Assembly (NCBI RefSeq): GCF_006345805.1
Contig: NC_043010.1
Span: 64,232,001 to 64,296,000, forward strand
DNA: 64,000 nt
Direction: 5' to 3'
DNA from: Octopus sinensis
Lineage: Eukaryota
A program made the position numbers. Shown here one piece after another: positions 19,301-61,900 of the stretch. How positions within the stretch are numbered: position 1 is the first letter of the stretch; each line of letters starts with the position of its first letter.

Positions 19301-22300
19301 CTGACTTCCTTATTAAGTAAATGGATTTAGTTATGAATGAGAAACGCGATATTGATATTTTTATCAATATATTTCAATGTTTGAATTTATTAAAGATAAA
19401 CATACCTTATTTCTTCTTCAATCAATTTTTTTTTACATGTAATGCTAGTAAATAAAGGAAGTACTTTATATTAAGTACATTATTTTGTCTTTTCTGCTTT
19501 AAAATATTGTATTATTATCGTGGCACATCTAATTACACCTTGAGGTACATCATGTATTGCAACGCCCAGTTTGGGTATTATTACAAGATTATTAAAATTC
19601 GTAAAATAGAGAAGTTCATATATAGTAAAGAAAAGTAAATTTAGACATCAGAGAAGGTCAGTTTCCGAAGAAATAAAATACCTCTCCTAATTTCTCTGTC
19701 AAATTGGAGATAATGGATTAATCAACAAAGAGTTAATGACAGAGATTAGAAGATAGTTTAATCCGCCAAGTGTTTGGAAGAAAAGGATCAGATTTCTGAA
19801 GTCTGAGTGTCTGACTTGTAGAGCGGACAGTTTATAAGCAGACATATGCGATTTTGTTGAGTAGTACTTAACAGGGGCAACTATTGGTATAGTAGTTACT
19901 CAAAATATATGTTTAGATAAGAGTAAAGATATTAAAAATATTTAAGCCATGAAATATAAGAGAAATTCAGTATAGTTACCACAAAGACCGAACTCTACCC
20001 ATTCCTTTTAATCTTAAACTGCACATAACTTCCAATAACAGATATGCATCACTATCATATGTTACTTTCATTCCTCATTCTAAGTGAACCCTAAAAATTA
20101 AATCACTCCAAAGCTAGCGAAGAACAAATTGTGTTGGTACAGCAAAATCTAACCCTTACAATCTCTATAACTCCATTAGCAAACATTTGCATATACAACG
20201 CCTTCACAACTACTGCAATATCAATCTCTCATACTCCTTCAAATATATCTGTTACACAGCCCAACACTGCTACAACACCAAAGGACCACGAAAGAAATTT
20301 TGTAGGATTGATTGATTTGTTAAAAATAGCAGCCAAATGCCATTCAAATTGCATTCTCCATCTTAAAAAGATATTTTACACTTAAAACCAACAGCGAATG
20401 ACAGAATACCTTAGATGTCTGATCAAGGCTAACAGTGGTCGAAGCAACAACAATTTCAACACTATTCTGAAGAGAATATCCGTCCAGGGAAACACACACA
20501 CACACACACACAATCCTGACCTGCAAGAAATTGTAGCCAAATCTTCCTCAAATCACACACTACCCTCTTATACAAAGAAAGAATACATAAGATAATTTAG
20601 CTATTCAGATACTATATACACTCTCTGAAAATAAGCAGGGTGGTCATTGTTTTGGGGCCAAACAACTCCAAGAACCACCTTAAACGCTCTCTGGATTTCA
20701 CATTTGTCCTCGAGGAGTTCATCACTTGGACCGACAAGTATACAAAAAATTGACTGGGCAAAAAAAGAAACACATGTCCCAACTGACAATAATTCATATT
20801 CAGGATGTATTAGTGCGAAGGCCCACCAAGTGGTGAAGGCTTCGTATATCAAGTGTAATAGATCTGTGACTTGCACTTACTCTTTCGATCAACTATTATA
20901 GATATGCTCATCGTATCTGATTTTAAACTGAACTCCGCAATAACAGAAACAGCATTTGATAAATGGCATCATAAGGAAATCCTTCACATAATTCTTTCGG
21001 TAGCTTTTAACTTGTCTCTTCTAATTCTTAATTCATGTAGTCGGTAAAGTGTATCTGATATTTTAAACTTTAACAGAGTCTGTTTAACATCAAATCTGGT
21101 GGATATTAAAAGAAATTGTTCTTTTCAGAGTGTTCTCCTGGAAAGTATGGTACTCACTGTAATGAGGAATGCAACTGTCGAGATAAGGACGTGTGCGACA
21201 GAGTCACTGGAATATGCCCACATGGATGTCCACCTGGTTTCACGTCAGGCACTTGTAAAGAAGGTTAATAACGTTTGCTTTCTGTTGTCATTGTGTATTG
21301 CAATTGTTGTTCTTTTTAGTTATGTATTCTGAGATGCTAATACAAGATATAGCAAAGATTACCAACAAGGGTGACAGTACTGTGTGTGACATGGAACAGT
21401 GTACTAACAATGTACTTGCTTTTTCAACAAAATATAAAAACAAGGGAGACAACAAGATATACAAACTAGAGAAACAACAGCCTAAGCTAACAACATAACA
21501 AAGTATACTAACAAGGGGTACAGCTAGGGGTACATCACAGGGAACGACAACTTGTGATGACAAGGGAAGTAATAACATGTATTGTCAACGTTGACTACAT
21601 AGTATACTAACATGCGCGAAGAACGTGTGCTAACAGGGAAGATAACAAAGTATGCAAGAGTTGCACAGTGTGTACTAAGGAGGGAGATGGCAGAAGATTG
21701 TGTGCCTGAAGACATCTAACTAATTGCTTGAAATAGTCGTCTGTCTTATACATTTTTAGTTTTGGGTTGGTTAATTTATTAAGAAGCTAGTTTAGCCTGT
21801 TTAAGGTTCGATTTTGATGCAAAGAAAGTTTGGCAAATATCTTCTGTGAAAGTCCTGGTTTGATTCAAGACTTGTGAACGAAACAAACCATCTGGAAGCT
21901 TCAGGAAAACTCTGTGAAATTTGCAAGAGAATATGGTTCTGTCTTGAGTTGGCGTTGACTATGATGCCAGTAGTATTGTGTTACTGATATTTAAAAGGCA
22001 ACAATAAATTCGTAAGTTAAAACGTGTTTCTTCTGGGTTTTTTTTCAGTATGCCCTAAAGGCACATTTGGAGATGAATGTCATAAACAGTGTCATTGTAA
22101 TGATGACAGTTGCAACCCAGCATATGGTACTTGTGCTCATGGATGTGTTGCTGGATATCGGGGTAAAAGCTGTCAAGAATGTGAGTATGAAACAACTGAT
22201 TATACCATTGGAATTATGAAGTAATTTCAAAGTGAATATATTTAGTTCAAATCACTTATGGACGAATTTTATGTTAGGACTTCACCTGCCAGAATTTATC

Positions 22301-58900: not shown

Positions 58901-61900
58901 ATGCTAATACAAGATATAGCAAAGATTACCAACAAGGGTGACAGTACTGTGTGTGACATGGAACAGTGTACTAACAATGCACTTGCTTTTGCAGCAAAAT
59001 ATAAAAAACAAGGGAGACAACAAGATATACAAACTAGAGAAACAACAGCCTAAGCTAACAACATAACAAAGATACTAAAACAGGGGTACAGCAAGGGGTA
59101 CATCACAGGGAACGACACATTGTGATGACAAGGAAGTAATAACATGTATTGTCAACGTTGACTGCATAGTATACTAACATGGGCGAAGAACGTGTGCTAA
59201 CAGGGAAGATAACAAAGTATGCAAGAGTCGCACAGCGTGTACTAAGGAGGGAGATGGCAGAAGATTGTGTGCCTGAAGACATCTAACTAATTGTTTGAAA
59301 TAGTCGTCTGTCTATACATTTTTAGATTTCTGTTGGTTAAAGTTTTTGACTTTACAAAGTTTTGGGTTGGTTGATTTATTAAGAAGCTAGTTTAGCTTGT
59401 TTAAGGTTCGATTTCGATGCAAAAAAAGTTTGGCAAATATCTTCTGTGAAAGTCCTGGTTTGATTCAAGCCTTGTGAATGAAACAAACCATCTGGAAGCT
59501 TCAGGAAAACTCTGTGAAATTTGCAAGAGAATATGGTTCTGTCTTCAGTTGGTGTCGACTATGATGCCAGTAATATTGTGTCACTGATATTTAAAAGGCA
59601 ACAATAAATTCGTAAGTTAAAACGTGTTTCTTCTGGGTTTTTTTCAGCATGCCCTAAAGGCACATATGGAGATAACTGTAGTAAAACCTGTCATTGTATT
59701 GACGACAGTTGCAACCCAATATATGGTCAGTGTGCTCATGGATGTGTTGCTGGATATCAGGGTATAAACTGTCAAGCATGTGAGTATGAAACAACTGATT
59801 ATACCATTGGAATTATGAAGTAATTTCAAAGTGAATATATTTAGTTCAAATCACTTATGGACGAATTTTATGTTAGGACTTCACCTGCCAGAATTTATCT
59901 GGCCTTCTGTGATTGGCCTAGTGTAATTCTTTTTCTCATTTGACTGAAAATTACCCCGCCAACCTACTCTCTTGAGGATTTTCTTTTCAAGTATATTTTT
60001 TGTTTCGCTTTCTAATTTGTCCATGCGAATTTATGTGGATAATGGGTTACTACCAGTAACTCTATATATCCTCAAGCTTTCGTTAATCTTTCAAGTGCTG
60101 AAAACCCTTCTGATAATCTTTCCTGTCCCTAAGAGGCAAACTCTCTGTGGAAGCTCTTCAGGACATTCTATTCCAATCTCTTCCAACCATTCATCTATAT
60201 CCTTACTCCCAGATCCTAATGCACCAATTATTGCAGACACAACCTTTACATATTTCATGCTCCAAATCCTTGCAATTTCAAATTTTAAAGGATTGGATTT
60301 TAAAATGTTTTTCTTCTTTCTTAACAATCCTGGAATCGAACGGACACGATGGATCAATTAGTAAGCAACTTCGCATTTCCTTGTCTATTAGTGGTATATC
60401 TGTTTATTGTTTCCTAGCTTCTTATCTGGTTGAATGGGAAAATCCATAAAATCTTGCTTTCTCCGACTCAAGACCCTCTAGCAACCCTGGTGATACCAAG
60501 TACTTTGAGCTGAAAATCCCATAAAATCTTGCTTTCTCCGACTCAAGCACCCTCTCAACCCAATGGTGATACCAAGTACTTTGAGCTTCAAATCCCCATT
60601 TCTGATGAAGCGCCCAGTGAAAAACTTGCAATACTTGGTCATGTCTCCATTTCGTATATTCTGTATGAGCCAACCTGGGATATTCTGCAACAATGTGCAC
60701 CATTGTTTTATCTCAAATACCTCACACTTTACATTTTGCTGACACCTCCCCATACACATATTTTTTCAAATTATTTGTTTTTATAGCTTTATCTTCAGCT
60801 GCTTTAACAAGGAACTCTGTTTCTTTTTTTAAATGCCCTTTTGTTTTTAATGAAGCCCAGATTTTTGTTTCACGTACATCTTCAGTGGCTTTCAAATACT
60901 GACCATGCAGATTTTTTTTTCAATCTGTTTATAATGCTCTCTTTGAATATCATTTTCGTCTTTTCCTCCTATTTCCACATTTGACCACCTGCTATCTATT
61001 CACTGCCTTTAGTATTTCTGTGTGTTGTTCTATAGTAGCCTACTATATTTTAGCAGGCTTTGTCTGTGTTCTTTCAAGACCATACTTCTCATGCAATCTC
61101 TAGTGAACAAACTTAGCCCTGTTATCGTGCCTCTTTTTGTATTCTTTTTGGATTAGTTTGTAAATTCACTCACAATATGTGAGATTATTTCGTTTTTTGA
61201 TGCCATAAACCCACAAAGAGCGATTCATTGTTCTTGTCTATTTGGACCTTGGAGTAATTATTTCTCAGGGTTTGTTCCTGGGTACTACATATCAATGCCT
61301 ATGTGCATCTCTGCTGTTCCACTGGCAGCTTGTCATACGCACAGTTAGTTACATTCCTGATCAACTTCCAAATCAGTAGTAAGCAGGAGAATGGCCGGTA
61401 ATTTTCCACTGCATTACATTTACTGGAGTCCTTTTTGGTAAAGAGCTGTTTCCCTGTGGCAATGCATTTTGGGATTTATACCCTTTTGTTGATCATTTTA
61501 TCCATTTGCATCTATTCTTTTGTATAATTCTGGGAAATTTTCCAGCCATTACCTTTGTACCCATCCGAGCCAGGGACACTTCCAGTTGAGATCATTGTTG
61601 TCTTCTCGGTCACCATTTCAGTTGATATTCGTATACTGCTCTGTTCCATTTAAATTTTCTCGGATCTTAATTCCTTCAAGCATCTTTCTGGTGATTTTTC
61701 CATTATCTCAGATGTTACTCTAAACTCCTACTTTTTCAGCGTCCAGTTTCTCATTGCTGCTAAAGTGAAAATGTCAAATATAAAAATATAAAACATTGGA
61801 ATGAACAAGAATGACACTAAAAACTGTACAAGAGGGTAGAGTGTGGACTCTCAGAGCCTTGACTAGCAACTCACCTAGTGATGGTGTCACAATAAAAATA

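Follow-up and report, generated by a model that had tools for sequence, protein, structure and literature searches.

Strong divergence of duplicated EGF-like exons within nearly uniform introns in a lectin-like/EGF gene of Octopus sinensis

The stretch of DNA that we analysed (hereafter the window; 64 kb) is part of a single Octopus gene, for which the public O. sinensis model is annotated 'MEGF6' and combines an F5/8C/FTP lectin-like domain with EGF modules. The predicted protein has a lectin-like (F5/8C/FTP) head and, after it, a string of EGF-like modules with eight cysteines each, and is probably membrane-anchored. The window holds a single F5/8C domain exon (Table 1), earlier exons lying upstream; searched alone against Pfam, this exon gave no match, and its domain names are taken from the precomputed Pfam domains of P0002 and P0004 (PF00754 / PF22633, also those of P0003). 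Downstream of an unduplicated EGF-like exon, U0, are three tandem units of ~18.7 kb, each with phase 1-1 exons for 8-cysteine EGF-like modules, named A, B and C (for unit 3, only A and B fall in the window). The public model P0002 has these exons spliced in series in the order U0-A1-B1-C1-A2-B2-C2, and P0001 contains further C, A and B modules past the window end; the modules would appear to be translated in series. Since all of the exons are in phase 1-1, exon skipping would preserve the reading frame. Related mollusc proteins are annotated as MEGF6, MEGF10 and draper, the MEGF6/10 names being automatic annotation. We found no description of this octopus gene or pattern in a library of open-access papers, the scope of our search.

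Table 1. Coordinates of exons, tandem units and a shared transposon block in the window.
Feature	Position	Strand	Basis or remark
F5/8C / fucolectin-type domain exon, C-terminal part	8440..8634	+	tblastn with public models
EGF-like exon U0, unduplicated, 147 nt, phase 1-1	15922..16068	+	Precedes A1 in public model
Unit 1, 18,706 bp, exons A1, B1, C1	19027..37732	+	Self-BLAST, MAFFT of units
Exon A1, 135 nt, phase 1-1, 8-Cys EGF-like	21129..21263	+	100% to P0002; near O. bimaculoides form
Exon B1, 132 nt, phase 1-1	22049..22180	+	Public model
Block that holds a dead reverse-transcriptase fragment just upstream of exon C	29274..31937	+	Common with 45570-48242
Exon C1, 135 nt, phase 1-1	30745..30879	+	Public model
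Unit 2, 18,901 bp, exons A2, B2, C2	37733..56633	+	Self-BLAST, MAFFT of units
Exon A2, most derived A copy	39824..39958	+	29/39 variable A sites private to A2
Exon B2, derived copy	40778..40909	+	30/132 differences vs B3
Exon C2	47049..47183	+	29/135 differences vs C1, none silent
Unit 3, ended by window edge, exons A3, B3	56634..64000	+	Self-BLAST, MAFFT of units
Exon A3	58696..58830	+	10/135 differences vs A1, none silent
Exon B3	59648..59779	+	

We derived the exon coordinates independently of the first-pass annotation of this DNA, and our exon calls bear out its statement that the exons lack stops and indels and have intact splice sites: every A, B and C exon is preceded by cag and followed by gt, and no indels occur within an exon type. 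The donor site is GTAAAA in A2 versus GTTAAT in A1 and A3; for the unit 2 exons, the O. sinensis public model is the sole confirmation. The dead reverse-transcriptase block of unit 1 matches that of unit 2, indicating that the transposon was copied together with the unit. Other insertions are private to one unit, including ~1.6 kb in unit 1 (24198-25784) and a segment of unit 2 (~52424-54394) that contains a minus-strand reverse-transcriptase fragment. False duplications arise readily in assemblies of marine invertebrates, and the public gene models divide the array in odd ways and extend into introns, as might be expected if divergent haplotypes of one or two real units had been placed in tandem, the exon differences then being selected allelic polymorphism. 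Nonetheless, we regard such an artefact as very unlikely: the window contains three units and P0001 has further modules beyond it, the unit-to-unit junction recurs in self-BLAST, many indels and kilobase insertions are specific to single units, there is no N anywhere in the window, and all pairs of units are about equally distant, at 3%.

The first-pass annotation had noted that the duplicated exons are hypervariable whereas their introns are almost identical. This observation is real, and sharper than originally reported. Our recount reproduced its figures exactly, with 38/135 differences between A1 and A2, 32/132 between B1 and B2 and 29/135 between C1 and C2 (99/402 in total), and with 56 of 131 complete codons differing, one of them silently (CCA/CCC); 29 of these 56 codons have multiple hits. 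Realignment likewise agrees with a single difference in the 68 nt upstream of A1 and A2, and the flanking intron and transposon are indeed only a few percent divergent. Between units 1 and 2, exons differ at 24.6% of sites (99/402) and non-exon DNA at 2.97% (444/14955; Fisher p 3e-56), the equivalent values being 30/267 and 199/6365 (3.13%; p 7e-9) for units 1 and 3, and 63/267 and 199/6610 (3.01%; p 5e-34) for units 2 and 3, with 268-540 badly aligned columns masked per pair. Identity in 200-nt sliding windows across the MAFFT unit alignment, a check proposed in the first-pass annotation, falls below 0.88 only at the three exons (0.82-0.845) and in one other stretch, a non-homologous transposon at 28101-29381. 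The change in divergence is sharp at the splice sites. Within 100 nt of the exons, the two flanks have 2/100 and 3/100 differences for A1-A2, 4/100 and 0/100 for B1-B2, and 4/100 and 2/100 for C1-C2; B2 and B3, with 30/132 exon differences, have 0/100 in both flanks. Exons C1 and C2 are identical across their central 39 nt.

Silent sites within the exons have changed little. For units 1 and 2, 1/31 fourfold sites and 1/76 same-residue codons differ; silent differences number 0/29 for units 1 and 3 and 1/22 for units 2 and 3. Silent change is nonetheless allowed, since 5-11 of 16-23 same-residue codons differ silently when exon types A, B and C are compared with one another. By silent sites, the exons are as young as the introns, although the sites are few (31 fourfold), such that exon age could be a few-fold above intron age. 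NG86 estimates of dN and dS are 0.351 and 0.130, YN00 gives an omega of 7.0, and pairwise GY94 maximum likelihood gives omegas of 6.1 (LRT p 3e-5), 11.0 (p 6.5e-3) and 5.7 (p 1.6e-3); dN is ~11.6 times the intron distance. Among codons with a single hit, 26/27 change the residue, when the intron mutation spectrum predicts 27% silent (binomial p 2e-3), so the signal is independent of multi-nucleotide changes. These tests are pairwise, on the units of one assembly. With dN far above both dS and intron divergence (omega 5.7-11), they uphold the earlier proposal of positive selection on the duplicated EGF-like exons. Variable codons differ at ~59% of bases versus 3% at neutral sites; the implied rate is extreme, high even beside known fast-evolving proteins, and this counts against the explanation that we favour below. 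The sharing of variable positions among exon types A, B and C was not significant (permutation p 0.13).

The acceleration is lopsided, being strongest in unit 2, whose exons A2, B2 and C2 are derived. At sites that differ between units 1 and 2, the O. bimaculoides state is that of unit 1 at 13 sites in A, 12 in B and 4 in C, and that of unit 2 at only 0, 1 and 2 sites, respectively. At the DNA level, 29/39 variable sites in A and 19/39 in B are private to unit 2; by contrast, unit 2 has the fewest private non-exon changes (54 vs 82 and 118; 6284 columns). Its modules have 14 aromatic residues versus 6 in unit 1 (tyrosine, 12 vs 4) and a net charge of +9 versus +1. The duplication is specific to this lineage: P0004, the relative in O. 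bimaculoides, carries a signal peptide and one module each of types A, B and C, followed by a D module and, at the C-terminus, a membrane anchor; only a few cytoplasmic residues come after the membrane segment.

We considered whether the exon differences could instead be old, kept by diversifying or balancing selection in the style of the MHC, with introns continually homogenised by gene conversion or unequal crossing-over such that their 3% divergence understates exon age. Intron-biased homogenisation, one of the alternatives raised in the first-pass annotation, does seem to occur. The outlier unit changes along the repeat (chi2 48.1, 24 df, p 0.0025), consistent with a mosaic non-coding history; non-coding divergence is overdispersed (index 3.3, p 1.7e-4); and units 2 and 3 are nearly identical in the flanks of exon B. 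Homogenisation cannot alone explain the exon pattern, however, because the silent sites within the exons are as young as the introns. These silent sites lie within a few bases of variable codons, making separate conversion impossible, and divergence is not raised in the 100-nt flanks (15/600 for units 1 and 2). Old alleles would also sit poorly with the single A-B-C set of O. bimaculoides, whose states unit 2 almost never shares. The NG86 dS of 0.13 does exceed intron divergence, as an older exon history would predict, but omega is 2.7 even at this value. On balance, we consider old exon differences unlikely. The MHC-like expectation of exon silent sites older than introns is not borne out (1/31 fourfold sites vs 2.97% of non-exon sites).

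The exon differences have some features suggestive of a mutational process directed at exons, whether local hypermutation, micro-conversion with other EGF exons as templates, or segment switching similar to ASSET. Mismatches adjoin another mismatch in 71/99 cases in exons versus 85/444 outside them, and transitions to transversions are 33:66 in exons versus 281:163 elsewhere. Twelve codons are changed at all three bases, and 13/15 bases differ in a five-codon run in A2, the only segment that looks replaced. The exon transition:transversion ratio, the triple-base codons and the A2 run could mean that selection has driven these sites to saturation, or that some of the changes were multi-nucleotide or templated. 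Yet differences are distributed 35/42/20 over the three codon positions, sparing the third, and in seven residue-changing pairs with both codons in fourfold families the third base differs in only 1/7; silent positions in the exons are not raised, and single-hit codons are 26:1 non-synonymous. We also found no donor. Within the 150 best representatives from the library, the sister units are nearer to A2, B2 and C2 than is any other module with precisely the cysteine spacing of these exons, the next-best modules sharing 20-23 of 43-44 residues; within the window, private exon k-mers recur no more often than expected by chance. The signature is that of point mutation plus selection, and the exon-targeted process suggested previously is disfavoured; we give it very little credence. 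ASSET-type replacement of exon segments by unrelated sequence is not borne out, third positions being spared and the third base kept in 6/7 cases. Together, the young silent sites, the spared third positions and the omega values argue against exons that are old amid homogenised introns, against hypermutation across whole exons and against random replacement of segments.

All eight exon peptides share cysteines at C1, C10, C14, C16, C22, C29, C33 and C42, and five invariant glycines. None reached the gathering score of a Pfam EGF model, the closest being EGF_STAB1-2 (18.5 bits; cutoff 27) and EGF_laminin (15.7; cutoff 21), and 3/9 peptides searched had no Pfam match at E<=1. The module profile matches 6u11_A ('EGF-like domain-containing protein', E 8.3e-8), SCARF1 (8hna_B, E 2.9e-7) and Tie2 (2gy5_A, E 2.2e-6). 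The best AF2 model has a pLDDT of 81.6, the other four reaching only 55-57, and Foldseek ranks SCARF1 first (E 9.1e-3, TM 0.59), then Tie2, with no match at E<=0.001.

We propose, as the probable explanation, a recent lineage-specific tandem duplication, after which positive selection acted on the loops of the modules, most strongly in unit 2. A block of 18.7 kb containing the A, B and C exons, their introns and dead transposons would have been duplicated in tandem in this lineage, ~3% neutral divergence ago, giving at least three copies in the window and more downstream. Ordinary point mutations that altered surface-loop residues would then have gone to fixation at about 6-12 times the neutral rate, without loss of the eight cysteines and the glycines or of reading frame and splice sites. 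Gene conversion or unequal crossing-over among units may have acted on non-coding DNA, sharpening the contrast between exons and introns. The shift of unit 2 to tyrosine-rich, more basic surfaces would fit selection on the A2/B2/C2 trio to bind a new target or to bind with altered specificity; we infer that selection may act on ligand binding. A burst confined to one module trio, with tyrosine-rich, basic loops, offers a testable case of module-level neofunctionalisation. The locus also provides a clean internal control: exons, kilobases of co-duplicated intron and a dead transposon share one history, which lets the excess of amino-acid-changing substitutions, roughly 10-fold, be read off directly.

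The locus marks a lineage-specific, very fast-evolving octopus protein, probably at the cell surface, with a predicted lectin-like head. The recognition receptor (immune, allorecognition or gamete recognition) suggested in the first-pass annotation is plausible, given the F5/8C / fucolectin-type domain of the public models, the signal peptide and membrane anchor of the O. bimaculoides relative and the resemblance of the modules to those of SCARF1 and Tie2. The protein is a candidate receptor for immune, gamete or other recognition, in a group of animals whose repertoires of such molecules are little known. We know of no variable recognition system in cephalopods. In Dscam-like arrays of mutually exclusive exons, each transcript includes just one of the duplicated copies of an exon. 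A bolder reading, which we think very improbable, is that the octopus array is a cephalopod device for diversifying a recognition molecule, in which alternative splicing would combine or select tandem, frame-compatible three-module cassettes under diversifying selection; individuals might in addition differ in the number of copies and in their sequence. If so, the lectin-headed surface receptor would come in variants specific to cells, tissues or individuals, functionally analogous to Dscam-hv, FREPs or oyster bindin.

Several known systems share some of these features. MEGF10/Draper phagocytic receptors have an N-terminal EMI domain and a signalling cytoplasmic tail. The octopus modules resemble those of SCARF1 and Tie2 in profile, and entries of these two also head the fold search, though at E above 0.001. 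The modules have C-x3-C, however, where the SCARF1/MEGF10/Draper/Tie2-type families have C-x-C; the predicted octopus head is F5/8C/FTP rather than EMI; and, in the O. bimaculoides relative, a mere few residues make up the cytoplasmic tail. MHC class I/II genes have a variable exon within far more uniform introns, and dN exceeds dS at contact codons. The octopus locus similarly has variable exons amid uniform introns; in the MHC, however, exon polymorphism is older than the introns, whereas in the octopus gene the silent sites of the exons date no further back than the introns. Extracellular repeat arrays within one gene, with concerted evolution of most repeats alongside positive selection on some, are found in abalone VERL and Drosophila eater/Nimrod NIM. 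Their domain types differ from those of the octopus gene, in which each module is a separate exon in an 18.7-kb unit; because long introns flank these exons, exon and intron histories can be compared directly.

The octopus exons show the exon acceleration of venom genes, with exon divergence above intron divergence and dN above dS. Duplicated three-finger toxin genes of snake venom are reported to have strongly different exons, highly similar intron segments, and a conserved disulphide scaffold on which surface loops and charge are altered (Doley et al., 2008, PMC2474615; see also PMC2711939), as at the octopus locus. ASSET proposes a swap of exon segments for unrelated sequence, whereas the octopus exons retain third positions and silent sites, pointing to point substitutions; moreover, the octopus copies are modules inside one gene rather than separate secreted genes, with no indication of a venom role. 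Oyster sperm bindin is another mollusc protein with tandem modules, in this case F-type lectin repeats, diversified by positive selection (PMC5712786), and so resembles the octopus gene in its F-lectin-type domain context. In bindin, it is the lectin repeats that are diversified, within the species, with alternative splicing and recombination in a variable intron (PMC5712786); in the octopus gene, by contrast, it is the EGF-like modules that diverge, and the introns are conserved.

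The window, which contains 0 N, carries a head-to-tail tandem repeat of about 18.7 kb whose units, U1 to U3, have in common long introns and pieces of dead retrotransposon (see table). Exons A (135 nt), B (132 nt) and C (135 nt), found in each unit, are short, bordered by cag and gt and in phase 1-1; every one encodes a single EGF-like module of 43-44 residues, in which eight cysteines and five glycines are invariant. An Rfam search of the whole window returned no family. The units might be allelic haplotypes placed in tandem by the assembly, but we consider this very improbable, since there are at least four units, their junctions recur, and they carry unit-specific insertions.

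Features of the tandem array and neighbouring exons in the window
Feature	Position	Strand	Method
Unit U1	19027-37732		self-BLAST, MAFFT
Unit U2	37733-56633		self-BLAST, MAFFT
Unit U3	56634-window end		self-BLAST, MAFFT
Exons A1; A2; A3	21129-21263; 39824-39958; 58696-58830
Exons B1; B2; B3	22049-22180; 40778-40909; 59648-59779
Exons C1; C2	30745-30879; 47049-47183
Exon U0, unduplicated EGF-like module	15922-16068
Lectin-domain exon	8440-8634
Non-LTR retrotransposon	1883-4723	plus
Reverse-transcriptase fragments	29643-30125; 45865-46428
Unit-specific kilobase insertion, U1	24198-25784		self-BLAST, MAFFT
Unit-specific kilobase insertion, U2	~52424-54394		self-BLAST, MAFFT
Non-homologous stretch between units	28101-29381 vs 45175-45677
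Reverse-transcriptase fragment in unit-specific DNA	53116-53589	minus

The unit-specific insertions and the non-homologous stretch suggest that transposon turnover was ongoing after duplication. Internal tandem duplications are present in the C-to-A intron at 35331-35858 and 54845-55638 (a 270-bp and a 418-bp unit, each x1.9). The intron between U0 and A1 shares segments (16170-18097) with the 3' end of the units (55726-56316, 37415-37743) at 87-96% identity, which puts the upstream breakpoint of the duplication immediately 3' of exon U0. The non-LTR retrotransposon occupies the intron that precedes the lectin-domain exon and has two long open frames (396 and 493 aa) with endonuclease/RT-type, RVT_1 (E 1e-30) and PHD-like zinc finger domains; it seems younger than the retrotransposon fragments that the units carry.

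The first-pass annotation had claimed that the duplicated exons are hypervariable while their introns are nearly identical, and its counts are reproduced exactly: A1 and A2 differ at 38 of 135 nt, B1 and B2 at 32 of 132, and C1 and C2 at 29 of 135 (99/402 in total), with 56 of the 131 complete codons different, one of them silently. With 268-540 badly aligned columns masked per unit pair, non-exon sequence differs by 2.97% between U1 and U2 (444/14955), by 3.13% between U1 and U3 (199/6365) and by 3.01% between U2 and U3 (199/6610); the corresponding figures for the exons are 24.6%, 11.2% and 23.6%. Among 200-nt sliding windows, only those at the three exons and at one non-homologous transposon stretch have an identity under 0.88, and the switch is abrupt at the splice sites. 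The contrast is sharpest between B2 and B3, which differ at 30 of 132 positions within the exon and at 0 of 100 in each flank. Relaxed constraint, or dead exons, as an explanation is rejected, since neutral decay predicts about 3% divergence rather than the roughly 25% observed.

Two further observations concern the exon borders. The exon A donor reads GTAAAA in U2 only (39959-39970), with a small indel close behind, and GTTAAT in U1 (21264-21275) and U3 (58831-58842); a change in splice strength alongside the derived exon is possible. The 90 nt 3' of exon B (22181-22270, 40910-40999, 59780-59869) show 0/90 differences across all three units. If the exon B donor is unused, the frame stays open for 14 codons before a stop, and P0001, a public O. 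sinensis protein model, ends in this way; such read-through may be fortuitous or reflect an isoform that retains the intron.

The further claim that the exons outrun their introns under positive selection, with dN far above dS, is upheld by pairwise GY94 maximum likelihood estimates of omega of 6.1 (p 3e-5), 11.0 (p 6.5e-3) and 5.7 (p 1.6e-3); for U1 and U2, NG86 gives 2.7 and YN00 gives 7.0. Derived from dN and non-exon divergence, dN is about 11.6-fold above the intron distance. Among codons with a single difference, 26 of 27 are residue-changing, where the intron spectrum would predict 27% silent (p 2e-3). Silent sites are as conserved as introns: between U1 and U2, only 1 of 76 same-residue codons differs, and 1 of 31 fourfold sites, which equals the intron rate, although this silent-site sample is small. 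When the exon types, as older paralogues, are compared with one another, silent differences appear in 5-11 of 16-23 same-residue codons, so silent change is permitted in these exons. The hypervariable positions are not significantly common to the exon types (of 30 free columns, 9 are variable in every type; permutation p 0.13).

These silent sites bear on two alternatives that the first-pass annotation had left standing. An exon-targeted mutational process, acting as exon-wide hypermutation, is unlikely and was not borne out, since silent-site counts are not raised, third codon positions are spared, and single-difference codons are almost all residue-changing. That the exon differences are old and the introns have been homogenised is also rather unlikely as a cause, since silent sites in the exons are no older than the introns and divergence is not elevated in the 100 nt of intron next to them. 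As a contributor, homogenisation fared better: which of the units is the outlier varies with position in the repeat (p 0.0025), and non-coding divergence is overdispersed (p 1.7e-4), which indicates a mosaic history in which the units have to some extent converted one another or exchanged unequally.

A third alternative is that segments were replaced, by an ASSET-like process or by micro-conversion from other EGF exons. This is mostly not what we see. Differences at codon positions 1, 2 and 3 number 35, 42 and 20, and where a residue changes between two fourfold codon families, the third base is retained in 6 of 7 cases. Among the best 150 of 4784 profile matches, no donor module with exact cysteine spacing is nearer to A2, B2 or C2 than the sister units are, and exon-private 10-12-mers recur across the window about as often as chance predicts (67 against ~82 expected, 26 against ~21, 7 against ~5.5), giving no local template. 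Nonetheless, a run of five codons in A2 differs at 13 of 15 bases, 12 codons are hit three times, and the transition:transversion ratio is 33:66 (1:2) in exons versus 281:163 outside; given these figures, some of the changes may be multi-nucleotide events, or the sites may be saturated. The implied substitution rate is very high.

We favour, with moderate confidence, a recent, lineage-specific tandem duplication of the three-exon block, after which strong positive selection would have acted on the EGF-like module loops, mostly in U2, with the disulphide scaffold, reading frame and splice sites retained throughout. Conversion or unequal exchange among units would add to the exon-intron contrast. 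Several comparisons point to U2 as the copy that moved. It holds the unique state at 29 of 39 variable sites in A and 19 of 39 in B, and has the fewest unique non-exon changes (54, versus 82 and 118, in 6284 three-way columns). Of the 56 sites that differ between U1 and U2, the residue shared with O. bimaculoides, taken as reference, is retained by U1 at 29, by U2 at 3 and by neither at 23. Over all three exons, U2 has 14 aromatics to 6 in U1 (12 Tyr versus 4) and a net charge of +9 versus +1. The U2 exons are known from the O. sinensis assembly and model only; a word-based search with exon A2, weak for 44-residue queries, returned the public model itself and no independent copy or orthologue.

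Database searches, run exon by exon, found exon A1 to be 100% identical to P0002, an O. sinensis model (525 aa) annotated 'multiple EGF-like domains protein 6', for which precomputed Pfam matches are F5/8C and fucolectin/tachylectin-4/pentraxin-1 (FTP). Local tblastn places P0002 on the lectin-domain exon (part of the lectin-like domain), U0, and then A1-B1-C1-A2-B2-C2 in series, so this model was built from the window; its first 97 residues are encoded upstream. The lectin-domain exon matches at 64 of 65 residues rather than 65; the window and the public model may derive from different individuals, haplotypes or versions of the assembly. In P0001, A3 and B3 come first and more C, A and B modules follow, which extends the array beyond the window. 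Between them, these models divide the array into two 'genes' and take in intron or repeat stretches (34841-34960, 51002-51130, 51654-51803, 58472-58540); the public annotation is probably in error, and the actual gene likely extends across the full array as far as a downstream exon for a membrane anchor. We infer serial translation of all the modules, following the public model.

In O. bimaculoides, P0004 (649 aa; 77% identity over the lectin-domain exon) has a signal peptide, a lectin-like domain, a U0-like module, a single A-B-C set, one additional module and a membrane segment at the C-terminus, and an O. vulgaris model has an A1-identical and a B1-like module. The amplification thus seems confined to the sinensis/vulgaris lineage; its predicted product is probably a type I surface protein. 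Single exon peptides gave only below-cutoff EGF matches in Pfam, and the lectin-domain exon alone gave no match. The module profile matched the EGF-like repeats of SCARF1 and Tie2 among solved structures, and these entries rank first, weakly, in a fold search. An exhaustive profile search recovered 4784 proteins at E<=1e-3; the ten checked are from molluscs or amphioxus, with automatic names such as MEGF6, MEGF10, draper and receptor-type phosphatase. P0037 ('protein draper', O. sinensis) and P0048 ('receptor-type tyrosine-protein phosphatase T-like', O. vulgaris) have the same module type and lie outside the window on the same chromosome-sized contigs as models of the array gene, which hints at a local cluster of paralogues.

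Selection would presumably act on ligand binding, and the protein may have an immune, gamete or self-recognition role. The pattern belongs to a known class, in which duplicated genes under positive selection change more quickly in exons than in introns, and MHC, VERL and Nimrod/eater are further systems for comparison. Searches of an open-access paper library returned no paper on the octopus gene or pattern. Published examples of the class are snake-venom three-finger toxins (ASSET; PMC2474615) and diversified repeat proteins, among them oyster bindin (PMC5712786). Unlike members of this class, the octopus array is intragenic and varies at the level of modules, and it comes with an 18.7-kb co-duplicated neutral control; in contrast to ASSET, its signature is one of point substitution rather than segment switching.
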